NCBI GenBank assembly: GCA_947313885.1
Contig: CAMZNU010000002.1
Span: forward strand, 4,321 to 68,320
From: an uncultured Clostridia bacterium
GTDB lineage: Bacteria; Bacillota; Clostridia; Lachnospirales; CAMZNU01
DNA: 64,000 nt
Reading direction: 5' to 3'
Shown here: in pieces, positions 4,167-50,834 of the stretch
Layout: each line of letters begins with the position of its first letter
Position numbering within the stretch: the stretch's first letter is position 1
The notes under the pieces: model-generated
Seen by the model: the letters and a program-made list of their open reading frames with translations, nothing else
Databases searched by the model: none
Told to the model about the DNA's origin: nothing
Position numbers and translations under genes: made by a program

Positions 4167-4187
4167 TTAATAATAGGAGAAGTATAT

Positions 4188-20222: not shown

Positions 20223-20344
20223 AATACCTCCTATGTAAGTGATAGTAGTAATTATATCATAAAATAATATATATATTATTATTGATAAAATAAACAAAAA
20301 AATATATAATAATTGTAATTAAATTATATAGAAGGAGTTAAGAA

Positions 20345-33019: not shown

Positions 33020-33445
33020 TTATTTAATTATTATTGCTTTACTCAATGCATCATCAACAGCCGTTAATAATATTTTAGTAGTTTCAATAGAAATTGCCGA
33101 AGTTTCAACAGAAGTACTTTGGTTTCTAATAATACTTTCAGAAAGTGCAACCATAGTAGGCTTTAACAATGGGTAGAAAACTTCTTGGGTTTCGTTTAGA
33201 TCTAGTAATAGCACATCTAATATTTCATATTCATCAACTACAACTACTACATTAATTTTAGAGTCGTTTAAAATGATTTCCGAAGTATATTCTCCTGGTA
33301 TGTATTTTGAGCTTTGTACTTCTTGATCATTTTTTGGTAAAAACATAAAAATGATAAATAATAATATTATAAGTCCTGTCACAAATAAAACAGTTGATCT
33401 AATAATATCCTTTAATGAGAAAACCATTATTTTAGTGTTTTTCAT
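33020..33445 (-). CDS. Membrane-anchored hypothetical protein with a distant FMN_bind-like ectodomain
   Basis: 141 aa with one N-terminal TM segment (VLFVTGLIILLFIIFMF). The ectodomain layout (Y.PGEY...INVVVVVD...ILDV...NET...II..QS..V...) resembles FMN_bind domains. The [ST]GA[ST] flavinylation motif is absent; the equivalent region reads ETSAISIETT. Confidence 0.35.
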   Translation of the reverse strand: MKNTKIMVFSLKDIIRSTVLFVTGLIILLFIIFMFLPKNDQEVQSSKYIPGEYTSEIILNDSKINVVVVVDEYEILDVLLLDLNETQEVFYPLLKPTMVALSESIIRNQSTSVETSAISIETTKILLTAVDDALSKAIIIK

Positions 33446-36500: not shown

Positions 36501-36953
36501 ATTAACGCTTTAAAATCAGAGGATGCGGGCATTGTAGAAGGTGAGGTTGACAAAGAAATATTGAAAGAGTTCAAAATGACAGGGCTTGTAAATGAAGATA
36601 AGGAAATTATAAAACATATAGATAATAGTGGAAATAAAAAATCTGATATTATACCGATAGCATTTAAAAAAGATGGTGAAATAAGTGCAGTTAGTCGCAG
36701 AAATGCGTTAAGTAATGAAGAATTTGATTTATTAAGAAATCATTGTACAAAAAAAATAGTTGAGATAGGCAAAAAAATGACAAATGGTGATATTTCAATA
36801 TCACCGTTAAAGAGAGATACAAAAACGTCATGTGATTTTTGTTTATATAAAGGAATATGCTTGATAGACATAGTAGACGAAAATAAAAGATATACGTCAA
36901 TAGAGAAACTAAGTAAAGAAGAAATATTTAAAAGAATTTTGGAGGAACAATAG
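33552..36953 (+). CDS. addB: Helicase-nuclease AddAB subunit B (AddB/RexB)
   Basis: 1133 aa with a GTG start. It has the N-terminal Walker A GSIGNGKTT, the C-terminal PD-(D/E)xK nuclease region (GKVDRIDIL...IIDYK), and Fe-S cysteines (LCPFAYF ... SCDFCLYKGIC). Confidence 0.85.
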   Translation: MTVILQFILGSIGNGKTTYCIEEAYKRKNKKLKSLIITPDQFVLESEKKIIKYTKERGILDIEVLGFNRLAQRIIATSSLSNKTILDSTTKIMLIKKIIIENENRLQYYSNSADKQGFIEKISNIIKEFYENDVTEKKIARTIKELVKEKNNNVLLKKIEDINLIIRCYKEFLEENYIDEDNLLNVLNKIIKEDETLKNTRVFIDGFINCNRSQIKIIGNLLNICEKVVITLPLSKVQIENTITKLDPYYEPKKMYMEIMKLAHENEVNIDTEIVLENKTKYSKEIDHIRANYLKVNHIEEFNFNENIKIIEEEDKFEEAKAIGREVIYLVKNEGYRFKDIVIITGEITEYETVIKSVFKNYNIPIFVDTKKPLHVHPSVEIILGILDVCISNYSYESIFRILKTGILDFTEEEVNILETYVLATGMTGYKWGFDEWTFELKNERFDLEVINDLKNRFRNGIVPFTSKFTYKTKSTVKEFSTYIIEVLKNLKVGERVLALSNEENNYDKIWKQLMEVLNKTVEVLGGSEVTTIEYKKLLESGFLSANVGIIPAGQDEIILGNISRTQIDVKKCLIVLGCNFGNIPLVNKDDTLLIDRDIDTINKTGYEILNNSKTKVLGQNLLLYRMLLKSSKNIILTYSRNTVAGKELLASELVLKIQKMFNIKINENKVLANDENLDLLNIIIKLKDNIELSTKEKNLINYYERNEHNKNLLNIIKKSSALHKKREVLSPEIVNKIYSDEIASSVTKLEKYALCPFAYFMKYNLNVDERKIYEVRHLEFGNVLHNILDDFITQMNVLGNVYGDVTKEYISEFTKDHMEKIIKENKHNVFNDNEKNKYLLSRISRIAKRSIWALVAHINSGEFIPYKSEFSFSRNQSLKGIEFDLGDNKKIIISGKVDRIDILKTDGEKYFKIIDYKLSAKKIDLKDVYKGVELQLITYLNILIENVEGINVDIKNQNKAGGVFYFTLQDPLLSSDKLGSEIINALKSEDAGIVEGEVDKEILKEFKMTGLVNEDKEIIKHIDNSGNKKSDIIPIAFKKDGEISAVSRRNALSNEEFDLLRNHCTKKIVEIGKKMTNGDISISPLKRDTKTSCDFCLYKGICLIDIVDENKRYTSIEKLSKEEIFKRILEEQ

Positions 36954-36954
36954 T

Positions 36955-38490
36955 ATGGTAGAACTAATAAAAAATGAAGTTAGTAAAATATTAAAAGTAA
37001 AAGAAGAAGATGTAAATATTTTAGAAAAATTAAAAGGTGGGATGAGTAACCATATGTATGTTATAGAAGTTAATGGTCTAAAATATACATTTAGAATACC
37101 TGGGAAAAAGGCTAATAATTTTGTAGATAGAGAAAAAGAGTTAGAAAATATTAAATTAGTTGAAAAATTAGAAGTTAACAATGAAATGTACTATTTCGAT
37201 GAGGTAGTAGGGTATAAGCTGTCAAAATATGTTGAGGGAGAATGTTTGATAGAAAAGAAAGTGGAAGACTATCTTGTAGATGTATCAGAAATTTTAAGAA
37301 AAGTGCATAATTCAGAATTAAGATCTAAATATGACTATGATTGTATGGGAAGATTATCAAAGTATGAGAAATTAGTAACAGATAAAGGTTATATAGGAAA
37401 AAGAGAAAAATATTATGAATTAAAGAAAAAACTGGAATCAGATTTCTCTTTTTTACAAAATGGTAATTTAGTTTTATGTCATGGAGATAGTCAGGTATCA
37501 AATTTTGTAGTGGGGGAAGATAAGTTATATTTATTAGACTGGGAATTTTGTGGAAATAATGACCCTATTTATGACATAGCTTGCTTTGGAAATGTTGATT
37601 TTGAAGATGCACTTAAATTATTGCCAATATATTTAGGACGTGAACCAAATGCTATTGAAATAAGTAAGTTAAATTATTTTAGAGGATTTCAATGTTTGCA
37701 ATGGCATAATGTTGCACTTTATAAGGATTTAATCGGTTTAAGCGAGGAACTTTCTGTTCCATTTTTAGAAATATCTGAAGGTTATTTAGTTAAGGCTGAG
37801 AAATTTTTAGAAGATGCGAGAATTAAAATGAATATAGAAAATGAAAAAGATTTATTAGAATTTGAAATATTTAAGGTTTTAGGGCCAGACATGTTAGAAA
37901 AAATGTCAAATGTAGTATACACCCAAACTATAGAAGCAGAAGAATTAATATATTCATCAAATGTATGTAAGGGTATATTAATAATTAAAGAAGGTAAATT
38001 TAGAGTATATATGGTTTCCGAAACAGGACGTGAAATAACTTTATTTTATGCAGAGAAAGGCGATACTTTGGCGCTTGCAATGAATTGTATGAGTGGTAGC
38101 ATGCCGATTAGTGTGCACGTTAAAGCTATTCAAGATAGTATTATTTATAAAATTGATAATGATGAATTTTTAAGATTTCATAGAAGTTCATTCGAGTTAC
38201 AAAAATTTATAATTGAGAACATGACGAAAAATATGAATGAAGTAATGTGGGTAATTGAACAAGTAGCGTTTAATAGTATAGACAAAAGAGTTGCAGGATA
38301 TTTATTAGACTTAGATCAAAATATTATTTATAAGACGCATAAAGAAATAGGCAATGAATTAGGAACGGCTAGGGAAGTCGTTAGTAGGATGTTAAAATAT
38401 TTCGAGCAACTAGGTCATATAGAAATTACACGAGGGAAAATTTATATTAAAGAAAAAGAAGAACTAGAAAAAATAGTTAGGCATATGTAA
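36955..38490 (+). CDS. Choline/ethanolamine-kinase-like phosphotransferase fused to a CRP/FNR-family transcription factor
   Basis: 511 aa in a single ORF. Residues 1-~290 form an APH/ChoK fold with GGMSNHMY, FRIPG, the Brenner motif HGDSQVSN and LLDWEF...NDPIYDIACF. Residues ~295-511 form a cNMP-binding beta-barrel plus the HTH GNELGTAREVVSRMLKYFEQLGHIEITRGKIYI. The ATG lies 1 nt after the addB stop. Confidence 0.8.
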   Translation: MVELIKNEVSKILKVKEEDVNILEKLKGGMSNHMYVIEVNGLKYTFRIPGKKANNFVDREKELENIKLVEKLEVNNEMYYFDEVVGYKLSKYVEGECLIEKKVEDYLVDVSEILRKVHNSELRSKYDYDCMGRLSKYEKLVTDKGYIGKREKYYELKKKLESDFSFLQNGNLVLCHGDSQVSNFVVGEDKLYLLDWEFCGNNDPIYDIACFGNVDFEDALKLLPIYLGREPNAIEISKLNYFRGFQCLQWHNVALYKDLIGLSEELSVPFLEISEGYLVKAEKFLEDARIKMNIENEKDLLEFEIFKVLGPDMLEKMSNVVYTQTIEAEELIYSSNVCKGILIIKEGKFRVYMVSETGREITLFYAEKGDTLALAMNCMSGSMPISVHVKAIQDSIIYKIDNDEFLRFHRSSFELQKFIIENMTKNMNEVMWVIEQVAFNSIDKRVAGYLLDLDQNIIYKTHKEIGNELGTAREVVSRMLKYFEQLGHIEITRGKIYIKEKEELEKIVRHM

Positions 38491-39161
38491 TGGAATATAT
38501 ATTAACCTTTTTTGCAGGAGTAATAACGTTTATATCACCGTGTTTATTACCTATTATCCCCATTTATATTAGCTACATCTCATTAGAAAATACGGCAAGT
38601 AGTAAGGTAAAGCTAATTAATTCAATTGGATTTTCTTTAGGATTTTCTATAGTGTTTTCAATGTTGGGAGCTATATTTTCAACGTTTTCGTTGTATGTAA
38701 ATGAATATAATAAAATTATTTCTATAGTTTCAGGAATTATAGTTATAACATTTGGATTAAGTGTATTAGGTGTAGTGCAATTGAAGATGCCGTATATTAA
38801 AAACAGAAGTAATTTAAACATGGAAAAACTAACATTTTTTAAATCTCTAATATTTGGAATTATTTTTGCTATTACAATGTCGCCGTGTTTAAATACATTT
38901 TTAGGAAGTGCATTATTACTATCAGCTAGTAGTGATAATTTAGACGTTATAAAAGGGGTAGCATTAATGTTAACATTTTCATTGGGGCTAGCAATACCGT
39001 TTATAATAACAGCGATGTTTATTGAGGAGATGGAAAAGATATTTTCAATGTTAAATAAAAATAGAAACAAAATACAAAAAATATCAGGAATATTTATGAT
39101 ATTTTTGGGTGTATTAATATTTATGGGAAAAATAAATTTAATTACCCAGATTTTTGATTAG
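38490..39161 (+). CDS. ccdA: CcdA/DsbD-family thiol-disulfide electron transporter
   Basis: 223 aa with 6 TM segments and the paired motifs FISPCLLPIIPIY and MSPCLNTF. A TAATG junction overlaps the upstream gene. Confidence 0.85.
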   Translation: MEYILTFFAGVITFISPCLLPIIPIYISYISLENTASSKVKLINSIGFSLGFSIVFSMLGAIFSTFSLYVNEYNKIISIVSGIIVITFGLSVLGVVQLKMPYIKNRSNLNMEKLTFFKSLIFGIIFAITMSPCLNTFLGSALLLSASSDNLDVIKGVALMLTFSLGLAIPFIITAMFIEEMEKIFSMLNKNRNKIQKISGIFMIFLGVLIFMGKINLITQIFD

Positions 39162-39768
39162 GAGGATTATGAATAAAAGAAGAATAATATTAATAATATC
39201 AACAGTATTGCTACTACTAGGAACATTAGTGACATCATATTTAACAAAGAATATATATGATACAAAAAATTATATTACAGATAACGTGGCAAGAGAAAAA
39301 AGTAAAGAAAAAAATGCGAAAGAAGGAGGCGTAGAAAAAGAAAACGAATCCGTTATAAATAGTTTAGATTTCACATTAAAAAACATAACAGGCAGTACTA
39401 CATCATTAAGTTCATTTAAAGATAAAAAAGTTGTTGTAATAAATTTCTGGGCAACATGGTGTAGTAATTGTAAAAAAGGGTTTCCAGATAAAATGAAATT
39501 AGAAGAACAATATAAAGAAAAAGTAGACTTTATTTTTATAAATGTTCAAGAAAGTAAAGAAAAAGTAGACGAGTATATGCGTGAAAATGGCTTTACATTT
39601 AAAAATAATTTATTAGATCTTGATGGTGAGGTCAGTCAATTATATGGAATTTCTGGAATACCAACAACAGTAATTATAAATAAAGAATTTACAGAAATTA
39701 TGGGATTTGTCGGAGATGTTGAAATAGGTATTTTTGAAAAAGAGATAATTAAGATGATTAGTAAATAA
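39154..39768 (+). CDS. Membrane-anchored TlpA/ResA-like thioredoxin-fold thiol-disulfide oxidoreductase
   Basis: 204 aa with an N-terminal TM anchor and FWATWCSNCK (WCxxC). It overlaps ccdA by 8 nt. Confidence 0.85.
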   Translation: MIRRIMNKRRIILIISTVLLLLGTLVTSYLTKNIYDTKNYITDNVAREKSKEKNAKEGGVEKENESVINSLDFTLKNITGSTTSLSSFKDKKVVVINFWATWCSNCKKGFPDKMKLEEQYKEKVDFIFINVQESKEKVDEYMRENGFTFKNNLLDLDGEVSQLYGISGIPTTVIINKEFTEIMGFVGDVEIGIFEKEIIKMISK

Positions 39769-39896
39769 TAAAACAAATGAAATTATGCAAGTTATTTACT
39801 CTAAAAGTATTATGTAAATAATATTGATTTTCATTAAAAAAAAAATATAGAATTAAAAACAGTTAGATTTACATTTATATTAGAAAAGGAGAACAA

Positions 39897-41084
39897 ATGG
39901 ATTTAGTAATGTTAAGTAGGATACAGTTTGCATTTACTGTAGGGTTTCATTTTTTATTTGTACCAATTAGTATTGGCGTGATTTTACATATGGCAATATT
40001 TGAATTTTTGCATTTAAAAACAGGGAAAGACGACTACAGAAAATTGACAGATTTTTTTGGAAATATATTTATTGTAAACTATGCAGTAGGTATAGTTACA
40101 GGAATTGGGATGAGTATACAGTTTGGAACTAATTGGGGAGAATATTCGACGTTTATGGGAGATTTATTTGGAGCTCCTTTAGCGATCGAGGCGTTACTAG
40201 CGTTTTTTCTAGAGTCTACATTTACGGGGATATATATTTTTAGAAGAAGTATTATGTCACCTAAATTTAGATTTGTAACAATTTTACTAATGACTTTAGG
40301 AACAAGTTTATCAGCATTATGGATTATAACGGCAAATGGGTTTATGCAAAACCCACTAGGTTACGAATTAAGTAGCGATGGGAGTAGAATAATATTAGTT
40401 GATTTTATGGCTATACTTTTAAACCCGTATGCGTGGTATATATTAGTACATACGTTACTAGCATCATATTTATTAGGTGCTATGTTCATAATGTCAGTGT
40501 CGGCAATGAAATTATTGCAACCTAATGTTTCAAAAGAAGAAAGTGAAATAATAGGCATGGCAACAAAAATTAGTAGTAAGACATTACTGTTGTTTAGTGT
40601 ATTAATATCAAGCCTAGGAGGTAGTTACACTATGTTCATAGGATTAATGCAAGAAACAAAAATGGATATGATTACGGGAATAGATAAATCTACAACAGGT
40701 CAAATAGTAGGTGCAAGCTTTTTAATAATGGTTACTCTTGGAACGATTTTTGTAATTATTGCGTTATACACGATTATCTTTTATAAACATTATGAAAAAT
40801 CTACAACTATGAAAAAAATATATGTTTATATATTTACATTGCCCTTTATAGCTATTCTTACGGGATGGATAGTAACAGAAGTAGGAAGACAGCCATGGGT
40901 AGTGTATGGGCTAATGAAAACTTCAGATGGTGTATCCTTAGTTCCTACAAGTCAAGTATGGTTTTCTCTAATTAGTGTGTTTTTAGTAAATGGAGTTCTG
41001 TTTGTTTTAGTAATGCATTTAAGTAAAACACAAATTAGAAAAAGTATATTTGACAATAAATACAACTATAAAGGAGGAAATTAA
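39897..41084 (+). CDS. cydA: Cytochrome bd oxidase subunit I (short Q-loop form)
   Basis: 395 aa with LSRIQFAFTVGFHFLFVP (N-terminal heme-ligand His), IEALLAFFLESTF, WYILVHTLLA and GWIVTEVGRQPWVVYG. Confidence 0.88.
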   Translation: MDLVMLSRIQFAFTVGFHFLFVPISIGVILHMAIFEFLHLKTGKDDYRKLTDFFGNIFIVNYAVGIVTGIGMSIQFGTNWGEYSTFMGDLFGAPLAIEALLAFFLESTFTGIYIFRRSIMSPKFRFVTILLMTLGTSLSALWIITANGFMQNPLGYELSSDGSRIILVDFMAILLNPYAWYILVHTLLASYLLGAMFIMSVSAMKLLQPNVSKEESEIIGMATKISSKTLLLFSVLISSLGGSYTMFIGLMQETKMDMITGIDKSTTGQIVGASFLIMVTLGTIFVIIALYTIIFYKHYEKSTTMKKIYVYIFTLPFIAILTGWIVTEVGRQPWVVYGLMKTSDGVSLVPTSQVWFSLISVFLVNGVLFVLVMHLSKTQIRKSIFDNKYNYKGGN

Positions 41085-42101
41085 ATGTCACATGAATTAT
41101 TAGCAAATATTTGGTTTCTTATTTTAGCATTAGTATGGTCATTATATGTAATTCAAGAAGCATTCGTAGTAGGTCTTAGTGTTATGTCGGCAAAATATAA
41201 GGAAGAAAAAGATGTTAGAAAAATAAATACGTTAGTAGGAACACATTGGGATGGTATAGAGGTATGGTTAGTTTTAGCAGTAGCAGGTCAATTTGCGGCT
41301 TTTCCAGTTATTTTTGCAGAAACATTAACTAACTTATACGTAGTATTCTTTCTACTGTTATATATTATAGTAGCGAGAGGGATGGCTATTGAAACATTAT
41401 ATAAAACAGACAATAAAAAAGTTCAAAAAGCATTAAAAGTTACATGGCAAGTGTCATCACCACTTTTAATATTAGTTATAGGCGTGTATCTTACAAATTT
41501 ATTTATGGGGCTTCAATTGTTAGAAAATTATATTGAAGGCGGATTTTTTCATTTCCTATATATATTTAATTTTACGGCAATATTAGGCGGTGTAATGTTT
41601 GTAACGTATAGCTTAACATCAGGATATAACTTTTTAGTTTTAAATTATAAAAATGATTTAAAGGAAAATATAGAACATATAGGTAAATATGCATCAGTAA
41701 TAACAGTTGTAACACTTATTTTTATATTAATGTCATTAAATAATGAATATTCAGTTTTTAATAGTGGAGTGTATGAGACGTATCAAATTTTGATATTACT
41801 ACCAGCACTATCGGCAATAATGATGATTGCATCAATGATTTTTGTGTGGTTAAATAAAAATTTATTTTCATTTATTACGCAGTCGTTAGGTATGACTTTA
41901 TTTATTTTTACAGGATTTGTTGGATCAATGCCATATGCGTTAAAAAGTATTAATAAAACTCAAGGAGCAGGAAGTATTTTAATGGTAGATGGTGCAGCCG
42001 GACCTAAAACCCTAGAATTAATGTTATATTTGACAATAGCATTTTTACCTATAGTTTTAGGATATATAATATTTAAGTATATTAAATTTTGGGGGAAATA
42101 A
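41085..42101 (+). CDS. cydB: Cytochrome bd oxidase subunit II
   Basis: 338 aa polytopic protein. It starts immediately after the cydA stop (TAAATG), and its size and topology are typical of CydB. Confidence 0.8.
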   Translation: MSHELLANIWFLILALVWSLYVIQEAFVVGLSVMSAKYKEEKDVRKINTLVGTHWDGIEVWLVLAVAGQFAAFPVIFAETLTNLYVVFFLLLYIIVARGMAIETLYKTDNKKVQKALKVTWQVSSPLLILVIGVYLTNLFMGLQLLENYIEGGFFHFLYIFNFTAILGGVMFVTYSLTSGYNFLVLNYKNDLKENIEHIGKYASVITVVTLIFILMSLNNEYSVFNSGVYETYQILILLPALSAIMMIASMIFVWLNKNLFSFITQSLGMTLFIFTGFVGSMPYALKSINKTQGAGSILMVDGAAGPKTLELMLYLTIAFLPIVLGYIIFKYIKFWGK

Positions 42102-42102
42102 T

Positions 42103-43140
42103 ATGACGATAAACCAAAAAAAGCAAAGTTTAGATAAATTAAAGATAGATTTAGTCAGTTATCAAAAACTGGTATATAATACATTGGTTATATTAGTAGC
42201 TATAAAGTTAGCTTTGTATATAGATATAGGTATTTTATATGTGTTAAAACATTTAGCATTAACGGGTATCGCTGTTGTAGTGTCACGCGAAGTGGAAATT
42301 TTATATTATTTTCACTATTATGAAAAATCTAGGGAAGAATCATTAAAAATAATAGAAACAACAAGACCAGAAATAGTAGCTTTGTTAATCGTTTTAATTT
42401 TTAATTACAATGTACCACCAGAAGGTGTAATTATAGCAGTATCACTTAGTATATTATTAAGTAGAATAGCATTTGGTGGTTTTTCGTATAATATATTTAA
42501 TACAGCAGCATTAGGTGTTGTCATTTTAAATGAAAGCTATAGAATGTCTATAGAAACGTTTGCACTAGACGATATAATCGATAAAGTGTTAGGTATTTTT
42601 TTTGTTGAATCCTTTGCACATAAACCGATACCTGTAGCTAATTTGGCAATAAGCATACCGGACGTATCATCTGTAGATTTAACTTCAGTTGCTATATTAG
42701 TAATAGCGATAATATTTTTTATGTCTTTAGTTATCAACAAGGTAGGGCGAATATTGCTACCAATAGCAACAGTATTTTTTATTTCCGTATTAGTGGCATT
42801 AGTAGGTGGGCGATATATTCCGATTTTAATAGAAGTAATTGGTCGCTACACAATAATAGGAATTTTATTTTTCACCTTAGACTTTCCTACAACTCCAAGG
42901 TTTAAAAATTCTACTATTGTAACAGCGTTAATAATTGCAATAGTTACTGTTTATATTAAATTTTTTACAGACAATGGATACGGAGTATTTTATGGTATTT
43001 TAATAGCAAATATGTGTACACCAATTCTTGATGCTAAATTTGCCAAGTATAAGGATAACGCATCGTCAATATCAATAGTAGTAGTAATTTCGTTTATAAT
43101 AAGTGTGTTAATTAGCTATCTTATTAAAGTAAATGTGTAG
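42103..43140 (+). CDS. RnfD/NqrB-family membrane protein, divergent, with no flavinylation motif
   Basis: 345 aa. FGGFSYNIFNTAALGV matches the FGGLG-N-FNPA block, and C-terminal DFPTTP...GYGVFYGILIANMCTPILD matches ATDPVT-P...G-FAIL--N---P-ID. No [ST]GA[ST] occurs anywhere in the protein. The ATG lies 1 nt after the cydB stop. Confidence 0.65.
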   Translation: MTINQKKQSLDKLKIDLVSYQKLVYNTLVILVAIKLALYIDIGILYVLKHLALTGIAVVVSREVEILYYFHYYEKSREESLKIIETTRPEIVALLIVLIFNYNVPPEGVIIAVSLSILLSRIAFGGFSYNIFNTAALGVVILNESYRMSIETFALDDIIDKVLGIFFVESFAHKPIPVANLAISIPDVSSVDLTSVAILVIAIIFFMSLVINKVGRILLPIATVFFISVLVALVGGRYIPILIEVIGRYTIIGILFFTLDFPTTPRFKNSTIVTALIIAIVTVYIKFFTDNGYGVFYGILIANMCTPILDAKFAKYKDNASSISIVVVISFIISVLISYLIKVNV

Positions 43141-43154
43141 TATGGAGGGTAAAT

Positions 43155-43706
43155 ATGAAAAATAAAATATTGCAATATTCAATAGTCCTTTTTGTTATTA
43201 CATTTATATCAGCTACGTCTATAACATTCATGAAAAATATAACAGAACCAATACTTACGTTACGTGCAAAGGAAAAGTTAGATTATGCTATAAATAATAA
43301 TTTGAAGATTTTATATCCATCAATGAGTGATGACTATGAAGTTTTAGATGATACGATAAGAAATAAGTCACTTATTACTAATATATTCAAAATTACATTT
43401 AAAAATAATGACAATACATACTATACATACAATGTTAGTAGTCCAGGGAAAAATGGAAATATAAATTTTTTAGTTGTTTATAATGAAATGAATAAAATAG
43501 ATAACATCATTTATATTTCACACAAGGAAACAAGAGGCAGAGGAGACAAAATAGAAAGTGAAGATTTTTTAAGCAAAATCGTAGGTCAACATATAGGGGG
43601 TTTTAATGCACCGAATATTACAGGAGCTACATACAGTTCATTAGGGGTTAAAAATGGAATAGAGGAAGCTAACAAACATTTACAGGAGGTGATATTAGGT
43701 GAATAA
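43155..43706 (+). CDS. rnfG: RnfG/NqrC-type FMN-binding subunit
   Basis: 183 aa with an N-terminal TM anchor and an FMN_bind domain carrying HKETRGRGDK and the flavinylation motif ITGATYSS. Confidence 0.78.
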   Translation: MKNKILQYSIVLFVITFISATSITFMKNITEPILTLRAKEKLDYAINNNLKILYPSMSDDYEVLDDTIRNKSLITNIFKITFKNNDNTYYTYNVSSPGKNGNINFLVVYNEMNKIDNIIYISHKETRGRGDKIESEDFLSKIVGQHIGGFNAPNITGATYSSLGVKNGIEEANKHLQEVILGE

Positions 43707-44322
43707 GTTATATACAAATTTAAAAGATTCTCTCATAAAAGATAACCCAATATTTGTCTCGTATTTAGCGTTATGCCCAACATTAGGAACGACATCTACA
43801 TTTAACAATGCGATAGGAATGGGCTTAAGTGTTTTATTTGTTCTTATTTTTTCAAATCTTTTAATATCATCAGTGAGGAATTTTGTACCCAGTGAAATAA
43901 GAATTCCTGTTTTTATTACAATAATAGCTTCACTAGTTACATTATTAGAAATGATCTTAGAGGCTGTAACGCCAACATTATACGAAACGTTAGGTATGTT
44001 TTTACCTCTTATAGTAGTAAATTGTATTATACTAGGTCGTGCCGAATCGTTTGCATCAAAAAATAATGTTAAAAAATCAATAATAGATGGACTTATTACA
44101 GGATTAGCATTTGCTATAACAATAAGTATTATAGGAGCATTTAGAGAATTTTTTGGAACAGGTTCAATAAGTATATTTTCATTAAGATTACAAATGTTCA
44201 CGCAAGAAATCATGCCATCATTTTTAACTAAAAACACAGGTGCATTTATATCGTTAGGGTTAATGGGCTGGGTATTTAATGAGATTAAAATAAACAATAT
44301 GAAGAAAGGAAAGGTGAATTAA
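43699..44322 (+). CDS. rnfE: RnfE/NqrD-type membrane subunit
   Basis: 207 aa with a GTG start after aggagg. It has NPIFVSYLALCPTLGTT and VVNCIILGRAE, so both conserved Cys are present. It overlaps rnfG by 8 nt. Confidence 0.85.
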   Translation: MNKLYTNLKDSLIKDNPIFVSYLALCPTLGTTSTFNNAIGMGLSVLFVLIFSNLLISSVRNFVPSEIRIPVFITIIASLVTLLEMILEAVTPTLYETLGMFLPLIVVNCIILGRAESFASKNNVKKSIIDGLITGLAFAITISIIGAFREFFGTGSISIFSLRLQMFTQEIMPSFLTKNTGAFISLGLMGWVFNEIKINNMKKGKVN

Positions 44323-44895
44323 ATGACTATGAATGAAATAATTATTTTCGCAGTTTCAGCTTTCTTAGTTCAAAATATAGTGTTAACTCAATTTTTAGGA
44401 CTATGTTCATTTTTTGGAGTTTCAAATAAAAGAACATCAGCGGTAGGCATGGGACTAAGTGTTTTAGCTGTAATTACATTATCATCAATAGTAACATATA
44501 CTATTTATTATAAAATTTTAGTGCCGTACGACTTATTACATTTAAGAACGATAGTATTCATTTTAGTAGTTAGTGGATTTGTGCAAATTGTAGAAATGAT
44601 AATTAAAAAAATATCAAAACCGTTATATGATATTTTAGGTATTTATTTACCATTAATAACTACAAATTGTGCTGTGCTAGGAGTTGCATTGATAAATATA
44701 GATAGGCAATTTACATTTACGCAAATGATAATATTTTCAATATCAACAGCATTAGGTTACACAGTTGTAGTATACATGTTTTCATTTTTAAGAGATGAAA
44801 TAAATAAATCACCAGTACCTAGAGCATTAAGAAATAATCCAATAGCTTTACTAACAGCAGGAATTATGGCGTTAGCCATGAGTGGCTTAGTATAG
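44323..44895 (+). CDS. rnfA: RnfA/NqrE-type membrane subunit
   Basis: 190 aa with VQNIVLTQFLGLCSFFGVS and LPLITTNCAVLGVAL, so both conserved Cys are present. It starts directly after the rnfE stop. Confidence 0.85.
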   Translation: MTMNEIIIFAVSAFLVQNIVLTQFLGLCSFFGVSNKRTSAVGMGLSVLAVITLSSIVTYTIYYKILVPYDLLHLRTIVFILVVSGFVQIVEMIIKKISKPLYDILGIYLPLITTNCAVLGVALINIDRQFTFTQMIIFSISTALGYTVVVYMFSFLRDEINKSPVPRALRNNPIALLTAGIMALAMSGLV

Positions 44896-44904
44896 GAGGA
44901 ATAT

Positions 44905-45066
44905 ATGAGTTTTATTGTAGGCGTTCTTTTAATAGCAACATTGGCAACTTTTTTTATAGTAACGTATTATCTAAATAAAAAAATGGATACTAATAGCAAT
45001 TATAGATTAAATGAATGTAAGACTTGCACATATAAAAATGGTAGTTGTAAAAATAGAGGAGTTTAA
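44905..45066 (+). CDS. Unlisted 53-aa membrane peptide with a C-terminal Cys-rich tail
   Basis: My own translation is MSFIVGVLLIATLATFFIVTYYLNKKMDTNSNYRLNECKTCTYKNGSCKNRGV. An aggagga RBS sits at 44894-44900. There is one TM helix, then C-x2-C-x6-C. It fills the gap between rnfA and the rnfB-like gene exactly. It is below the 60-aa cutoff of the ORF track. Confidence 0.5.
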   Translation: MSFIVGVLLIATLATFFIVTYYLNKKMDTNSNYRLNECKTCTYKNGSCKNRGV

Positions 45067-45067
45067 T

Positions 45068-45352
45068 ATGATAGTTGAAATATTAACAGCGGGAATAGTA
45101 GTTGGTATTATGGGATTACTAATAGGTGTTGTAATAGCTGTAAGTAGCAAAATTTTCAAGGTGGAAGTTGATGATAGGATAGATATTATTTATAAAATGT
45201 TACCATCATTTAATTGTGGATCTTGTGGAACGGCTGGATGCATGGCATTTGCAGAAACTTTAATCAAAGGAGAAAACACTATTGATAAATGTAGACCGTG
45301 TAAACCAGAAGCAGAAGAAAAAATAATAAAAAAATTGAACGAGCTGATATAA
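45068..45352 (+). CDS. RnfB-like protein consisting only of the N-terminal TM anchor and 4Fe-4S domain
   Basis: 94 aa counted from the in-frame ATG at 45068 (agaggag RBS). It has a TM helix and then LPSFNCGSCGTAGCMAFAETLIKGENTIDKC (Cx2Cx4Cx16C). The ferredoxin-like 2x[4Fe-4S] domains of full-length RnfB are absent. The listed start at 45011 would overlap the 53-aa ORF. Confidence 0.7.
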   Translation: MIVEILTAGIVVGIMGLLIGVVIAVSSKIFKVEVDDRIDIIYKMLPSFNCGSCGTAGCMAFAETLIKGENTIDKCRPCKPEAEEKIIKKLNELI

Positions 45353-45353
45353 A

Positions 45354-45401
45354 TTGTTAACTAAAAAAACACACTGCAAAGTGTGTTTTTTTAGTTAACA
45401 A
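45354..45401 (+). terminator. Strong terminator closing the cyd-rnf operon
   Basis: ttgttaactaaaaaaacacact-gcaa-agtgtgtttttttagttaacaa forms a 22-bp perfect stem with a GCAA loop, starting 2 nt after the stop codon. Confidence 0.8.
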
Positions 45402-45434: not shown

Positions 45435-46487
45435 ATGATTAAACGAATATATAAAAAAGAAATACAAATAGGAGATGTAAAAATAGGCGGGGACAATAAA
45501 ATATTAATTCAGTCTATGACAAATACGGATACAAAAAATGTTAGTGATACAGTAAAACAAATAAAAAAATTAGAAAATGAAGGATGTGAAATTATAAGAG
45601 TAGCTGTAAAAGATGAGGGTGATGCGAAAGCTATAAAAAAGATAAAAGAAAATATTAAAATACCAATAGTTGCCGATATACATTTCAATTACAAATTAGC
45701 AATATTAGCTATGGAGAATGGCATAGATAAAATAAGAATTAACCCAGGAAATATATCAAACATAGAAAATTTAAAAAAAATTGTGGATGTAGCTATAAAA
45801 TTAGATATACCAATAAGAGTAGGAGTAAATTCAGGTTCTTTAGAACAAGAATTTATAGATAAATATAATGGGGTAACACCTATGGGATTGGTGGATAGTG
45901 GGTTGAAAAATATAGCAATTTTAGAGAATATGGGGTTGAAAAATATAGTGTTATCATTAAAAGCTTCGAATGTTAGGTTTGCAATTGAAGCATATACATT
46001 AATAAATGAAAGGATACAATACCCGCTACATCTAGGGATTACCGAAGCTGGTACAAAATTTACGGGTTCAATAAAGTCAGCGGTAGGAATAGGTCACTTA
46101 CTTTATAATGGAATAGGTGATACATTTAGAGTTTCAATAACGGATGACCCAGTAGAAGAAATAGAAATAGCAAAAGAAATACTACAATCATTAGATATTA
46201 GAAAATTCAGAACAGAAGTTATTTCATGTCCTACTTGTGGAAGGACAGAAATAGATCTAATTGCTTTGACAAATAAAGTTGAAAAATATTGTAAAAGGAT
46301 AAATAAAAACATTACAGTGGCAGTTATGGGGTGCGTGGTGAATGGACCAGGAGAAGCTAAGGAAGCAGACGTAGGGCTAGCGGGTGGAAAAGGCGTAGGT
46401 TTAATATTTAAAAAAGGTGAAATACATAAAAAAGTTGAAGAAAATGAAATGTTCGACGAACTAATAAAAGTTATAAATTCAATGTAG
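45435..46487 (+). CDS. ispG: 4-hydroxy-3-methylbut-2-enyl diphosphate synthase
   Basis: 350 aa with IQSMTNT, RINPGN and the C-terminal Fe-S cysteines SCPTCGR...GCVVNGPGE. Confidence 0.92.
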   Translation: MIKRIYKKEIQIGDVKIGGDNKILIQSMTNTDTKNVSDTVKQIKKLENEGCEIIRVAVKDEGDAKAIKKIKENIKIPIVADIHFNYKLAILAMENGIDKIRINPGNISNIENLKKIVDVAIKLDIPIRVGVNSGSLEQEFIDKYNGVTPMGLVDSGLKNIAILENMGLKNIVLSLKASNVRFAIEAYTLINERIQYPLHLGITEAGTKFTGSIKSAVGIGHLLYNGIGDTFRVSITDDPVEEIEIAKEILQSLDIRKFRTEVISCPTCGRTEIDLIALTNKVEKYCKRINKNITVAVMGCVVNGPGEAKEADVGLAGGKGVGLIFKKGEIHKKVEENEMFDELIKVINSM

Positions 46488-46502: not shown

Positions 46503-49500
46503 ATGAGAAATAAAACTTTATTCGAGGTGTTTCCTAATGTTCAATTTAGTGAAAAATATAAAGAAATAAAAGTTTCTAAAGTTAATTTTGATGAAAAAAA
46601 TAAAGCGATAACAATTAAATGTAATAGTTCTATTAAAATGGAAGAAAAGGATAGACAACATTTAGAAAAAAAAATATTAGAAAAATTAGATTATTTAAAA
46701 GAAGTTAATGTAGAATCTACTTTTATAAGTAACGATAGCCCAGAAGAAGTAATAGACAAGTATTTTAGAAATGTGATAGATATGTTTAAAGATGCATCTA
46801 CTTTTACATATACGATACTTAAAAAAAGTAAATATTACATAAGAGGAAATAGCTTACTAATAGAAGTAAATGAAGACTTGTACTTTTATGTTATAGGAAA
46901 AGAAATAGACAAAAGTATAAATAGTATTTTAAAAAGAGAGTATAATTTAGATATAAATGTAAGTTTTGAAATAGTAAAAGAAGGAATGACTACAGAGAAT
47001 TATAAGAAAAACAAAGATGAAGAATTAAAAAGTATGATATCAAGTTTAGCTTTAAACGATAGAGATAAGCCTAAAAAAGAGGAGAATAATAAAGAAAGAA
47101 AGAAAAGCAAAAAAAATAGAAAGTATAAAACAAGAAGAAAAAATGGTGTAAATTATGTTGAAAAAATATCTGGTGAAATATGTGCGATATTAGATGGAAT
47201 AGTACAAGACGATGAAACTATTATAAAGGGAGAAATTTTCGAGCTAGAAGTTAAAGAGATAAAAAATGATAAACTTCTAATTTCTTTTGATATGTTTGAT
47301 GAAAGTAGTGCGGTTACAGTTAAATTTTTCATTACAAAAGAAATATATGAAGAAGAATTCAAAGAAAAACTGTATAATGGCGATGAAGTGATAGTTAAAG
47401 GGTATGTAAGATATGATAATTATGATAAAGAATTAAATATTATGGCAAATGAAATATGCCATGGGGAAAACAAAATAAAAGAAGAAAAAGACGAGGAAGA
47501 AATTAAGCGTGTAGAGTTACATTTACATACTAACATGAGTTCTATGGATGGTATAAATAGTATAAAAGATTATATAAAAAAAGCAAAAAAATATGGTCAT
47601 AAATCATTAGCAATAACAGATCATGGGGTAGTACAAGCATTTCCAGAAGCAATGAATGAAGTTCGTGATATAGATTTTAAGTTAATATATGGAGTGGAGG
47701 CTTATTTAATAAATGATATAGAACTTGTAGTAGGAAATGTAAGGAATCAAAATATAGAAGATGAGTTTGTAGTATTTGATGTAGAAACTACAGGGTTATA
47801 TAGTAATACAAATAAAATTATAGAGATAGGTGCAGTAAAAATTAAAAACATGGAAATTATAGAAACATTTTCAGTGTTAATAAACCCGAATGAAATGTTA
47901 AGTGATAAAATTATAAAGTTAACAGGAATTACAGATAACATGTTAGAAGATAAAGGTGATGTAGAAAGTGAGATAGATAAATTTATTGATTTTATAGGTA
48001 AAAGTATTTTAGTTGGGCATAACGTTAAATTTGACATTGGTTTTTTAAATAAAGCGGTAAAGGATGTAAAAGGAGAAGAGTTAGAAAATACGTTTATAGA
48101 TACGGTAACTTTATGTCAAGGTATTTTTAATGGCAATGATAAGTTTAAAAACTTCAAACTAGATACGATAGCTAGAAACTTAGGGATCAGTCTAGAAACT
48201 CACCATAGAGCATTAGAAGATGCGAAAGCTACGGGTAAAATTTTAATACACTGTTTAAAAGTATTAGAAAAAGATGGAATAACAAAGATAGAACATATAA
48301 ATGAATATATTGCAAAAAAAATAGATTATAAAAAAATCAGACCAAATCACTGTATTATATTGGTAAAAAACTTAAAAGGGCTTAAAAACTTGTATAAATT
48401 AATATCAGAATCCCACATAAATAATTATTATAGAAACCCGCGAATTCCTAAAAGTTTATTAGTGGAAAATAAGGAAGGATTAATAATAGGAAGTGCATGT
48501 GAGGCAGGTGAATTATATAAAAACATAATAGGCAACATGCCAAAATCATATATAAAAAAAATAAGTCAATTGTATAATTATTTTGAGATACAGCCATTAG
48601 AAAATAACAAATATTTAATTAAAAATGGTGCGGTAACAGATACAAGACTTATTGAAATCAACAGGGAGATAGTTAAGCTAGGAGATGTAGAAAATAAAAT
48701 AGTAGTGGGAACGGGAGACGTTCATTTTTTAAATAAGGTCGATAAAGTGTATAGAGAAATATTAATGAGTAGTAAGGGATTTAAAGATGCGGAAGATCAA
48801 CCACCTTTATACTATAAAAGTACAAAGGAGATGTTAAATAATTTTTCATATTTAGGTAAAAAGAAAGCATACGAGATTGTAGTTACAAATACGAATAAAA
48901 TAAGTGATTTAGTAGATAAGATAAACCCAATACCAGATGGAACGTTCCCGCCTAAAATTGAAGGAGCAGATAAAGAATTAGAAAAAATAGCATATGAAAA
49001 AGCAAGGAGTTTATATGGTGACGATCTACCGAAAGTGGTAGAACAAAGATTGAATAGAGAGTTAACATCTATAATAAGTAATGGGTTTGCTGTTATGTAT
49101 ATAATAGCGCAGAAGCTAGTAAAAGATTCAGAAAAAGCGGGTTACTTAGTAGGATCTAGAGGATCTGTAGGTTCATCATTTGCGGCAACGATGGGTGGGA
49201 TAACAGAAGTGAACCCATTACCACCACATTATTATTGTAAGAAATGTCAGTATAATGATTTTGATTCAGAACTTGTATTAAGTTTTGCAGGTGGAACAGG
49301 ATATGACATGCCAGATAAAAATTGTCCTAACTGTGCCACTAAGTTAACTAAAGAGGGTCACGACATACCTTTCGAAACATTTTTAGGTTTTGATGGAGAT
49401 AAGGAACCAGATATAGATTTAAATTTTTCAGGAGACTATCAAGGCAAAGCCCATGAGTATACAGAAAAATTGTTCGGGGAGGGATATGTATATAAAGCTG

Positions 49501-50834
49501 GGACAATCGGGACTCTTGCAAACAAAACAGCATTTGGCATAGTATCAGGGTACTATAATGATAGAGGTGAGAAAAAAAGAAAAGCGGAAATAAACAAATT
49601 GAAAAATGGATGTATAGGAGTAAAAAGAACAACAGGACAACATCCAGGTGGATTAATGGTAGTGCCTAATGACTATTCGATATACGATTTTTGTCCTATA
49701 CAACGTCCAGCTAATGATCAAAGTAGTGGTACAATTACAACGCATTTTGATTATAATGCGATAAGTGGTAGATTGCTAAAGCTTGATATACTAGGTCATG
49801 ATAATCCAACTATAGTTAAAATGTTGTTAGATAATACGGGGTTAGATTGTAGAGATATAGACTTAGGCGATAAAGATGTTATATCACTATTTAGGTCACC
49901 AGAAGCATTAGGAGTAACAAAAGAAGAGATAGACTGTAACACAGGAAGTTTAGGGTTACCAGAGTTTGGGACATCTTTTGTTAGACAAATGCTAGAAGAG
50001 ACGAAACCAAATTCATTTTCAGAGCTTGTTAGGATTTCAGGATTATCACATGGTACAGATGTGTGGACTAATAATGGGCAAGAATTAGTAAAAAGTGGAG
50101 TTGCGACTCTAAAAGAAATAATACCTACAAGAGATGATATTATGGTTTATTTAATACAAAAAGGTTTAGATGAATTAAAAGCATTTAAAATAATGGAGAA
50201 TGTGCGAAAAGGTAAAGGGTTAACAGAAGAAGAGGAAAAACTTATGGTAGATAAAGATGTACCGACGTGGTATATCGAATCATGTAAAAAAATCAAATAT
50301 ATGTTTCCAAAAGGACATGCTGTTGCATATGTAATGATGACAGTTAGAATTGCATATTATAAAATGCATTACCCATATGCATTTTATCAAGCTATTTTCA
50401 CAGTTAAAGGTAACGACTTTGATTATAAAATGATGTGTGAAGGAATAGAAAAAGTCAAATTATTGGCAAAAGAAATAAATGATAAAGGATATAATAAGAC
50501 GACAAAGGATGGGGGAACGTTAGTTTTATTAGAATTATGCCAAGAATTTTATTCTAGAGGGTTAAAGTTTAAAAAAGTAGATATTTATAAGTCTAGTAAT
50601 AAGAAATTTATAATTACTAAAGAAGGTTTATTACCACCGCTATCGTCAATACAAGGATTAGGCGGTAATGCAGGAGAAAATGTAGTGAATGCGAGAAAAG
50701 ACGGAAAGTTTACTACTATTGAAGATTTCGCACAGAGAACGAAAGTAAATAAAACAGTTATAGAAATTTTAAAAACCATAAATGTTTTCGATGGATTAGC
50801 GGAAAAAAACCAATTAAGTTTATTGGATATTTAA
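46503..50834 (+). CDS. polC: DNA polymerase III alpha subunit, PolC type
   Basis: 1443 aa with a PHP domain (ELHLHTNMS), an inserted DEDDh exonuclease (FVVFDVETTG...HRALEDA), a Zn-finger region (CKKCQY...CPNC) and a polymerase core. Confidence 0.95.
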   Translation: MRNKTLFEVFPNVQFSEKYKEIKVSKVNFDEKNKAITIKCNSSIKMEEKDRQHLEKKILEKLDYLKEVNVESTFISNDSPEEVIDKYFRNVIDMFKDASTFTYTILKKSKYYIRGNSLLIEVNEDLYFYVIGKEIDKSINSILKREYNLDINVSFEIVKEGMTTENYKKNKDEELKSMISSLALNDRDKPKKEENNKERKKSKKNRKYKTRRKNGVNYVEKISGEICAILDGIVQDDETIIKGEIFELEVKEIKNDKLLISFDMFDESSAVTVKFFITKEIYEEEFKEKLYNGDEVIVKGYVRYDNYDKELNIMANEICHGENKIKEEKDEEEIKRVELHLHTNMSSMDGINSIKDYIKKAKKYGHKSLAITDHGVVQAFPEAMNEVRDIDFKLIYGVEAYLINDIELVVGNVRNQNIEDEFVVFDVETTGLYSNTNKIIEIGAVKIKNMEIIETFSVLINPNEMLSDKIIKLTGITDNMLEDKGDVESEIDKFIDFIGKSILVGHNVKFDIGFLNKAVKDVKGEELENTFIDTVTLCQGIFNGNDKFKNFKLDTIARNLGISLETHHRALEDAKATGKILIHCLKVLEKDGITKIEHINEYIAKKIDYKKIRPNHCIILVKNLKGLKNLYKLISESHINNYYRNPRIPKSLLVENKEGLIIGSACEAGELYKNIIGNMPKSYIKKISQLYNYFEIQPLENNKYLIKNGAVTDTRLIEINREIVKLGDVENKIVVGTGDVHFLNKVDKVYREILMSSKGFKDAEDQPPLYYKSTKEMLNNFSYLGKKKAYEIVVTNTNKISDLVDKINPIPDGTFPPKIEGADKELEKIAYEKARSLYGDDLPKVVEQRLNRELTSIISNGFAVMYIIAQKLVKDSEKAGYLVGSRGSVGSSFAATMGGITEVNPLPPHYYCKKCQYNDFDSELVLSFAGGTGYDMPDKNCPNCATKLTKEGHDIPFETFLGFDGDKEPDIDLNFSGDYQGKAHEYTEKLFGEGYVYKAGTIGTLANKTAFGIVSGYYNDRGEKKRKAEINKLKNGCIGVKRTTGQHPGGLMVVPNDYSIYDFCPIQRPANDQSSGTITTHFDYNAISGRLLKLDILGHDNPTIVKMLLDNTGLDCRDIDLGDKDVISLFRSPEALGVTKEEIDCNTGSLGLPEFGTSFVRQMLEETKPNSFSELVRISGLSHGTDVWTNNGQELVKSGVATLKEIIPTRDDIMVYLIQKGLDELKAFKIMENVRKGKGLTEEEEKLMVDKDVPTWYIESCKKIKYMFPKGHAVAYVMMTVRIAYYKMHYPYAFYQAIFTVKGNDFDYKMMCEGIEKVKLLAKEINDKGYNKTTKDGGTLVLLELCQEFYSRGLKFKKVDIYKSSNKKFIITKEGLLPPLSSIQGLGGNAGENVVNARKDGKFTTIEDFAQRTKVNKTVIEILKTINVFDGLAEKNQLSLLDI

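Follow-up and report, generated by a model that had tools for sequence, protein, structure and literature searches.

The stretch of DNA analysed here (the window) comprises 64,000 nucleotides of contig CAMZNU010000002.1 from an uncultured Clostridia bacterium (assembly GCA_947313885.1), and this study concerns a compact gene cluster within it in which the genes of a cytochrome bd are directly followed by those of a reduced Rnf complex. The cluster, here called the cyd-rnf' operon, consists of eight tightly spaced plus-strand genes in the order cydA-cydB-rnfD'-rnfG'-rnfE-rnfA-small open reading frame (ORF)-rnfB' and occupies positions 39897-45401 including its terminator, with neighbouring genes overlapping by up to 8 bases or separated by no more than 14. 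The gene for cytochrome bd subunit I, cydA (39897-41084; 395 residues; PF01654, 362 bits), abuts that for subunit II, cydB (41085-42101; 338 residues; PF02322, 173 bits; TIGR00203, 132 bits, above the cutoff), and rnfD' (42103-43140; 345 residues; PF03116, 86 bits) begins two bases past the cydB stop codon. These are followed by rnfG' (43155-43706; 183 residues; PF04205), rnfE (43699-44322; 207 residues; TIGR01948, 220 bits, above the cutoff), rnfA (44323-44895; 190 residues; TIGR01943, 213 bits), a small Cys-rich ORF (44905-45066; 53 residues), which was absent from the ORF list and was read directly from the sequence, and rnfB' (45068-45352; 94 residues; PF04060). An intrinsic terminator with a 20-bp stem (45354-45401) lies at most two bases beyond the rnfB' stop codon and is the sole strong terminator-like site within 37.8-45.6 kb. 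Given the tight junctions and the single terminator after rnfB', cydAB and the Rnf' genes are predicted to form one transcription unit. A promoter scan returned 54 sites against 64 expected and is uninformative in this AT-rich DNA.

No rnfC gene accompanies the cluster. Enumeration of the ORFs between 36.9 and 46.5 kb revealed none that is RnfC-like, and a Pfam survey of the cluster and of most other large ORFs of the window, which left out the ORFs identified by eye as AddB, IspG and PolC, gave no match to Complex1_51K or RnfC_N. A copy of rnfC elsewhere in the genome, beyond the window, is possible.

The CydA subunit is unusual. Its residues 1-257 align with residues 2-254 of Escherichia coli CydA (203 bits); from there the match skips to E. 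coli residue 389. The distance from K255 to M278 is 23 residues, versus 141 residues between the E. coli counterparts K252 and M393, and the residual linker between transmembrane helices 6 and 7 (TM6 and TM7) that stands in place of the Q-loop is encoded at 40659-40730 on the plus strand, as judged from the E. coli alignment and the spacing in the family. K252, like E257, belongs to the quinol-binding site in E. coli and M393 is a ligand of haem b558. Among 121 family sequences, 111 have 18 or 23 residues over this distance. H18, H185, M278, E328, E98 and E106 align with E. coli H19, H186, M393, E445, E99 and E107, respectively; the ligands of haems b558, b595 and d are therefore present, as are the proton-channel glutamates, which keep the E. 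coli spacing. These residues, together with K255 and with R331, the neighbour of the E445 equivalent, are at least 95% conserved across 120 short CydA homologues; E. coli E257 has no clear or conserved counterpart among them. In the AlphaFold2 (AF2) model of CydA (predicted local distance difference test, pLDDT, 93) TM6 spans residues 213-251 and TM7 residues 266-294, with only one eight-residue helix (253-260) between them, and the model superposes on all solved CydA structures with query-normalized TM-scores of 0.80-0.91. On the basis of the alignment and the model, the window CydA is best described as a complete three-haem oxidase core minus the quinol-binding Q-loop. The short CydA belongs to a well-populated clade: the best 119 CydA homologues are all 380-436 residues long, and those with a named source come from Candidatus Izimaplasma HR1, Mycoplasmatales and Bacilli metagenome-assembled genomes (MAGs), a Spirochaetaceae MAG and Thiospirochaeta perfilievii, among others.

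The product of rnfD' is a divergent membrane protein with the RnfD/NqrB fold. It scores 49 bits against the RnfD model TIGR01946, the cutoff of which is 207. It retains FGGFSYNIFNTA at residues 124-135 (the FGG..N.FN.A block), LDFPTTP at residues 259-265 (the D..T.P block) and NMCTPILD at residues 303-310 (the N..TP..D block). A motif scan found neither [ST][GAS][AS][ST] nor D-x-x-[ST]-x-A-[ST] anywhere in the 345 residues. Chance alone is expected to leave a protein without a four-residue motif, so homology of the loop was taken as the deciding test. The segment LDDIIDKVLG (42565-42594, plus strand) aligns with the loop LDGVTTATPL of Clostridium tetanomorphum RnfD (7zc6_D), to which flavin mononucleotide (FMN) is attached, and likewise with the loop of Acetobacterium woodii RnfD (9eri_D); no Ser or Thr occupies the FMN position, and the alignment reveals no cryptic acceptor. 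The AF2 model of RnfD' (pLDDT 78) matches RnfD structures best (9eri_D, 7zc6_D and 8rbq_D; TM-scores of 0.62-0.70) and NqrB next, and these are its sole significant matches in the PDB. A word-indexed protein search with RnfD' matched only the query itself; an exhaustive HMMER search of 1.84 billion representative proteins yielded 252 relatives at E < 1e-3, the nearest of which, at 39% identity, lies in the same gene order between unrelated flanks. RnfD' is thus rare, divergent and fast-evolving. It probably serves as a scaffold, an ion path or a docking surface, and a noncovalent flavin within it is possible.

The remaining Rnf' subunits keep their cofactor sites. RnfG' is predicted to have an N-terminal transmembrane helix preceded by Lys residues and an FMN_bind domain that faces outward. 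Its ITGATYSS motif (residues 155-162; 43617-43640) aligns with ITGATITS of 7zc6_G, with T159 as the predicted flavin acceptor, and the motif is conserved in 7/7 orthologues read. RnfE carries C26 and C109 and RnfA carries C28 and C116 in blocks nearly identical to those of the solved RnfE and RnfA (matches of 169 bits to 7zc6_E and 187 bits to 9eri_A), and these four Cys residues are the predicted ligands of the intramembrane [2Fe-2S] cluster. RnfB' starts at the ATG at 45068, compared with a mechanical ORF start at 45011, and consists of a transmembrane helix followed by a single predicted [4Fe-4S] domain, C50-x2-C53-x4-C58-x16-C75. It aligns with residues 6-76 only of A. woodii RnfB and has no domain beyond PF04060. 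The four Cys residues are invariant across seven orthologues, and every orthologue aligned or listed is about 93-118 residues long. The RnfB' of a second assembly of the same species likewise has 94 residues; together with the length conserved in the orthologues, this rules out an isolate-specific frameshift or pseudogene as the origin of the short rnfB.

The small ORF between rnfA and rnfB' is preceded by AGGAGG, a good ribosome-binding site, and encodes one transmembrane helix and a Cys-rich tail, C38-x2-C41-x6-C48, that is predicted to be cytoplasmic. Comparison with Pfam and NCBIfam gave no family match. Homologous ORFs of 48-65 residues occupy the same slot in L002, L060, L061 and L071 and in some of the rnfC-linked operons discussed below (L019, L045, L051 and L054), and an unlabelled 55-residue ORF fills the slot in L098. 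The protein could be an extra subunit of the electron-input module.

The original prediction, which was made from the letters of the window without database searches, had described an Rnf module with no RnfC nearby, an RnfB that stops after its N-terminal cluster domain, an RnfD-like protein without a flavinylation site, an RnfG that keeps ITGATYSS, and RnfE and RnfA that each keep both Cys residues; the enumeration, alignments and motif scan above bear out each of these points. The region at 42540-42700, which the prediction had named for checking, contains the segment (42565-42594) that aligns with the flavinylated loop of RnfD.

The arrangement recurs well beyond the window. Genomic contexts of homologues, which covered flanks of about 10 kb, show Rnf' genes directly downstream of the short cydA and its partner in 11/11 cases (the window, L002, L005, the variant L024, L058, L060, L061, L062, L097, L098 and L099), with different flanks each time. 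An independent search of metagenomes, started from P[HS]FNCG[SA]C as a motif of RnfB', returned 34 loci; upstream sequence was recognizable in 16 of them, and cydB or cydAB lay there in all 16. The window has the gene order cydA(short)-cydB-rnfD'(without the Thr)-rnfG'-rnfE-rnfA-rnfB'(about 100 residues), and the same order is found in L002, L058, L060-L062, L064, L065, L068, L074, L076, L078, L081-L083, L088-L090 and L097-L099. The operon is carried by Clostridia-like bacteria, Izemoplasma, Acholeplasmataceae and spirochaetes, and its hosts belong to anaerobe lineages of sediments, seeps and the gut. Median identities to the window proteins are 59% for RnfA, 50% for RnfE, 48% for CydA, 38% for CydB, 34% for RnfB', 28% for RnfG' and 26% for RnfD'. 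The predicted input half therefore appears to be strongly constrained and the former return half (RnfG' and RnfD') not to be conserved.

This conservation bears on the possibility that the genes are a decaying, functionless Rnf remnant in which rnfC has been lost, rnfB truncated and rnfD is degenerating. RnfD' and RnfG' do score far below their family cutoffs, and rnfA is split in one MAG, the Acholeplasmataceae locus L005 (OY763415; 12272-12843), where it falls into two ORFs of 67 and 120 residues in an otherwise intact operon, through either a frameshift or an assembly error. However, intact frames of the same lengths, at 25-60% identity, recur in over 25 loci that span several phyla; all of the cofactor Cys residues and the RnfG FMN motif are kept; and the second assembly of the species shows no difference in length. 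Because of this conservation, decay is effectively excluded.

A comparison group is provided by operons that retain rnfC. An alignment of 17 RnfD' sequences was too divergent to seed a genome scan, and the four-sequence alignment used instead retrieved mostly rnfC-linked relatives, in about 50 loci from Erysipelotrichaceae, other Bacilli, Proteiniclasticum and other lineages. In 35 of these loci the ORF directly upstream of rnfD encodes about 430-450 residues with two CxxCxxCxxxCP ferredoxin-type motifs, and this RnfC-like ORF was confirmed as RnfC by Pfam in both loci tested (L003 and L016). The rnfC gene of these sister operons thus occupies the same slot as cydAB in the window. Initially considered as further RnfC-less systems, the Erysipelotrichaceae-type clusters were dropped as such on the evidence of this upstream ORF; WOR-3-type loci were dropped as relatives, being Nqr-like sets with an NqrF-type subunit. 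The Erysipelotrichaceae and Bacilli operons (L003, L012, L016, L027 and some 30 further loci) have a one-cluster RnfB of about 100 residues; one or two FMN_bind domains are often fused to the C terminus of their RnfD, which then has up to three flavinylation motifs.

These RnfCDGEAB operons with a short RnfB, from Erysipelotrichaceae, Bacilli MAGs and Proteiniclasticum, contain the nearest relatives of the window RnfE and RnfA; unlike the window, they have RnfC and the RnfD Thr, often with FMN_bind domains fused to RnfD, and no cydAB. Loop alignment places the RnfD flavinylation motif D-x-x-[ST]-x-A-T in 15/15 rnfC-linked but 0/24 cyd-linked sequences. In a neighbour-joining tree of RnfE and RnfA, which is midpoint-rooted, carries no support values and is indicative only, all cyd-linked sets group together in a single clade that lies within the rnfC-linked ones. 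At matched RnfA divergence, RnfD identity is 42% in rnfC-linked pairs versus 30% in cyd-linked pairs. RnfB comprises 86-126 residues in most of the rnfC-linked operons, some of which also have the small Cys-rich ORF. Since operons that keep rnfC mostly have an equally short RnfB, a short RnfB alone is no sign of lost ferredoxin coupling, and the one-cluster RnfB is most simply read as a normal input subunit inherited from a lineage of complete Rnf complexes.

The functional part of the original prediction fares unevenly against this background. That the module is not a ferredoxin:NAD+ oxidoreductase is well supported, as RnfC is absent and the RnfD flavin site gone throughout the clade and not through decay in a single isolate. 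The claim that the ferredoxin interface had been stripped away is, as worded, not supported by the comparison with the rnfC-keeping operons. Of the suggested one-flavin transmembrane wire with an unidentified acceptor, the one-flavin part is plausible; the acceptor is likely to be the cytochrome bd encoded in the same operon, given that cydAB takes the slot of rnfC, that CydA lacks the Q-loop and that the arrangement is recurrent.

We therefore propose, at a probability of roughly 0.6, that the cyd-rnf' operon encodes a quinone-independent oxygen reductase in which Rnf' would act as the electron-input half and cytochrome bd would replace RnfC as the output. A low-potential cytoplasmic donor, most likely reduced ferredoxin, would reduce the single [4Fe-4S] cluster of RnfB', from which electrons would pass to the [2Fe-2S] cluster of RnfA/RnfE, across the membrane and on to the covalent FMN of RnfG' at the outer face. 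The RnfG' FMN would then reduce haem b558 of the Q-loop-less CydA directly, perhaps with RnfD' as a scaffold or docking surface, and haem b558 would pass the electrons to haems b595 and d and so to O2. Reduction of haem b558 by the RnfG' FMN is proposed because the input half is constrained, the return half has been dismantled and the Q-loop over the entry haem has been removed. The physical coupling, the donor, the direction of electron flow and any ion pumping are what we infer here from genomic evidence. In the simplest history, cydAB would have replaced rnfC once, in an Rnf operon that already had a short RnfB, after which the covalent flavin of RnfD and the Q-loop of CydA would have been lost and the unit would have spread among Bacillota and Spirochaetota.

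The proposal departs from the known systems in ways that can be stated subunit by subunit. In the canonical Rnf/Nqr path, electrons leave RnfB or NqrF for the RnfA/E [2Fe-2S] cluster, reach the mobile FMN that RnfG carries on the outside and continue over the FMN and the riboflavin of RnfD to RnfC or quinone (PMC12174285). With the Rnf complex RnfCDGEAB (7zc6, 9eri and 8ahx) the window shares the D-G-E-A-B order, the four [2Fe-2S] Cys residues of RnfA/E, the RnfG FMN motif, the RnfB transmembrane helix with its proximal [4Fe-4S] domain and, in RnfD', the RnfD fold; it differs in lacking RnfC (the subunit with the NAD(H)/FMN site and two [4Fe-4S] clusters), the polyferredoxin domain of RnfB (which holds two to seven [4Fe-4S] clusters and accepts ferredoxin; PMC12174285) and the Thr to which FMN is covalently bound in RnfD, and in having cydAB in the rnfC slot. 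Na+-NQR (NqrABCDEF) shares the core, with NqrB, NqrC, NqrD and NqrE corresponding to RnfD, RnfG, RnfE and RnfA, and shows by precedent that an Rnf core can evolve another input (NqrF) and another output (quinone) (PMC12174285). The window differs from it in the absence of NqrF and NqrA, in the loss of the RnfD' Thr and in the proposed output, which would be a haem protein in place of quinone; Pfam found no protein with Fer2, FAD_binding_6 or NAD_binding_1 in the window operon. The two-subunit NQR/RNF-like system (Meheust et al., 2021, PMC8238504; Huang et al., 2024, PMC10979944) is similarly partial, reportedly moves electrons one way to an outer FMN and has an unflavinylated RnfD-like protein. 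It is built, however, from an NAD(P)H-using fusion of RnfD with an NAD_binding domain and an RnfG-like protein, with no RnfA, RnfE or RnfB, whereas RnfD' contains PF03116 only and no PF00175 (NAD_binding_1) domain.

On the oxidase side, the E. coli cytochromes bd of the qOR1 type (CydAB and AppCB) are the best sequence match and share the haem ligands, the E99/E107 channel and the CydB partner; they differ in a Q-loop of 141 residues versus 23 in the window, in the presence of E257 and in the absence of Rnf genes downstream. Cytochrome bd families without a quinol site, for which non-quinol donors were inferred, have been described by Murali et al. (bioRxiv 10.1101/2021.01.16.426971). Like the window enzyme, these OR-N and OR-C families have lost the quinol site and lie in operons with alternative donors. 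The donors there are cytochrome c domains or others, the number of CydA helices is different and the channel shows a Geobacillus-type deletion, whereas the window CydA is derived and qOR1-like. The term Rnf is absent from the text of that paper. In genome papers on Izemoplasma and its relatives, `two Rnf complexes' and a `cytochrome bd oxidase' appear as unconnected entries, and the existence of a quinone pool is assumed. We found no description of a link between cytochrome bd and Rnf in the full-text literature searched, the coverage of which was incomplete, so that a prior report is possible.

Several points weigh against the proposal. No one-cluster RnfB has, to our knowledge, been characterized, and the choice of ferredoxin as its donor is one that we infer. 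A 2025 review of Rnf/Nqr covers only RnfB proteins with two to seven extra clusters (PMC12174285). If RnfG' reduces CydA directly, the retention of RnfD' is left unexplained, and the tree that places the cyd-linked sets in one clade has the limits given above. Input modules may also differ between operons, because RnfB' is missing from the variant locus L024, where an NqrF-type set comes next. In this Bacillota MAG (JAHISX010000042; 1585-11264) cydA-cydB is followed by an 814-residue fusion of RnfD' with three FMN_bind domains and by rnfE-rnfA; a second RnfD/G/E/A-like set comes next and ends in an NqrF-type protein with Fer2, FAD-binding and NAD-binding domains. L024 may be an NADH-fed version of the same arrangement. 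Finally, a residual quinol or flavin site in the short CydA is possible because conservation of both K255 and Q252 reaches at least 95% across the family.

This last observation also favours a different reading, which we consider unlikely: that the two modules are co-regulated, perhaps in a shared oxygen or redox-stress response, yet work independently. Cytochrome bd would then oxidize (mena)quinol near K255 and Rnf' would export electrons to another extracytoplasmic acceptor, such as flavins, thiol-redox proteins like CcdA and ResA or other reductases. Flavinylated RnfG-like domains do serve many extracytosolic acceptors (PMC8238504), and genes for CcdA and a ResA-like thioredoxin lie directly upstream of the operon in the window. 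Co-regulation does not, however, account for the loss of the Q-loop together with linkage to Rnf' in 11/11 contexts, and it leaves unexplained why cydAB sits in the rnfC slot and why loss of the RnfD Thr tracks the swap. Moreover, CcdA, ResA and the regulator gene next to them are not kept beside the operon in the other genomes examined, and no other acceptor gene is conserved within it.

The gene content of the operons bears on a second alternative. In the operons examined the Rnf' genes come directly after cydB, with no further genes between them or after rnfB'; no cydDC is thus found within them. In E. coli and Bacillus the CydDC exporter plays a role in cytochrome bd maturation, and Rnf' might take such a part, as an outer-face reductant for haem insertion or for keeping the enzyme reduced. 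The predicted delivery of electrons by RnfG' to the outer face would suit this role. The Q-loop-less oxidase would nevertheless be left without a donor, and a six-subunit redox machine seems elaborate for assembly; we regard a maturation or maintenance factor as very unlikely.

In several unrelated genomes the operon has a gene for peroxiredoxin (AhpC/Redoxin) or glutathione peroxidase as its immediate neighbour (L062, 13400-14107; L097, 12546-12992; L099, 12460-12900; L060, 16487-16969). These neighbours fit a role in the handling of oxygen or peroxide. They, and hosts from sediment, seep and gut anaerobe lineages, would also be compatible with modules that are coupled as proposed but act on a substrate other than O2, mainly as a peroxidase or as an NO- or sulfide-tolerant detoxifier in anoxic, sulfidic habitats; quinol peroxidase activity has been reported for E. 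coli cytochrome bd (PMC4899803). The residues of the O2 site and the proton channel are, however, all as in bona fide oxidases and nothing positive favours another substrate; we regard this reading as very unlikely. A gene for pyruvate:ferredoxin oxidoreductase (PFOR) at 51208-54741, 6 kb downstream of the operon, and ptb-buk genes for butyrate-type fermentation are also encoded in the window. Taken together, the peroxidase neighbours and PFOR suggest a context of oxygen stress.

The energetics of an Rnf'-fed cytochrome bd would differ from those of the quinol-driven enzyme. With electrons exported to the outer face and the protons for water taken from the cytoplasm, the charge separation of quinol-driven cytochrome bd would be lost, so that conservation of energy would need Na+ or H+ pumping by the Rnf core; otherwise the system would be an oxygen scavenger. 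A bolder version of the proposal, which is possible but which we put forward only tentatively, is a self-contained, quinone-free respiratory supercomplex, that is, an energy-conserving ferredoxin:O2 oxidoreductase with a Na+- or H+-pumping Rnf core in which the RnfG flavin reduces haem b558.

The genes around the operon in the window are as follows. Upstream, three mutually overlapping plus-strand genes at 36955-39768 encode, by Pfam, a kinase-Crp/Fnr-type regulator, CcdA and a ResA-like thioredoxin, and end 129 bp before cydA. The 511-residue product of 36955-38490 is an unusual fusion of a choline/aminoglycoside-kinase-type domain with a cyclic nucleotide (cNMP)-binding domain and a Crp/Fnr helix-turn-helix, and the end of its gene overlaps the start of the CcdA/ResA-like thioredoxin pair (38490-39768). 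Within the 129-bp gap, TTGATTTTCATTAA at 39824-39837, read by eye, has one mismatch to the FNR/CRP-family box TTGAT-N4-ATCAA and overlaps a -35-like hexamer. The three genes may be co-regulated with the operon, and their membership in the system is uncertain. Farther out lie AddB (33552-36953), IspG (45435-46487, plus strand; a 350-residue ORF after rnfB') and PolC (46503-50834), all identified by eye.

In the Izemoplasma-type genomes two more conserved genes lie directly 5' of cydA (L058, 9155-9957; L097, 6149-6954; L099, 6169-6962). They encode a polytopic membrane protein of about 208 residues with conserved His residues in its helices and a 60-residue membrane protein, neither of which has a Pfam match or a counterpart in the window. 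In L002, the operon of the closest relative, a symporter gene (2759-4225) lies directly upstream of cydA and a transketolase gene downstream. The window has two tandem paralogous Na+:alanine symporter genes of the same family downstream of PFOR (54863-56320 and 56763-58223) and a transketolase gene at 30980-32968.

The nearest named relatives of the window RadA are sequences from Epulopiscium, Cellulosilyticaceae and Defluviitalea, at about 60% identity, in line with a Lachnospirales-like organism within the Clostridia. The window contains no tRNA genes. The genes examined are all on the plus strand except for 19563-20297 and an unassigned ORF at 33020-33445, and this near-uniform orientation, together with the steady rise of the cumulative GC skew, places the window within one replichore. 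The species was not retrieved from the species representatives of GTDB r232, although the search patterns match its own RnfD'; as the four-sequence RnfD' scan missed it, it seems to be absent from that set. The protein collection holds only one other near-identical assembly.

Current practice treats cytochrome bd as an oxidase of quinols and Rnf as an enzyme that couples ferredoxin to NAD+. The proposed combination, in which an Rnf core would have a haem oxidase as its output and a cytochrome bd would have Rnf as its input, is widespread and apparently undescribed. The hypothesis is directly testable in at least one carrier, T. perfilievii (CP035807), which is validly named, has a complete genome and is probably available in culture. 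The supercomplex, if true, would be a third output module of the Rnf/Nqr family, after NAD+ and quinone, and would explain why cytochrome bd genes occur in wall-less and strictly fermentative bacteria, in which no quinone synthesis is expected. If cytochrome bd and Rnf' form one system, it would be a new route of oxygen reduction, driven by low-potential ferredoxin and free of quinone, that bears on oxygen tolerance and scavenging in anaerobes of gut, sediment and seep. Metabolic reconstructions that score `Rnf' and `quinol oxidase' in the carrier genomes would then need correction, and the Rnf/Nqr core would be a general-purpose transmembrane wire with swappable outputs: NAD+, quinone and a haem oxidase.

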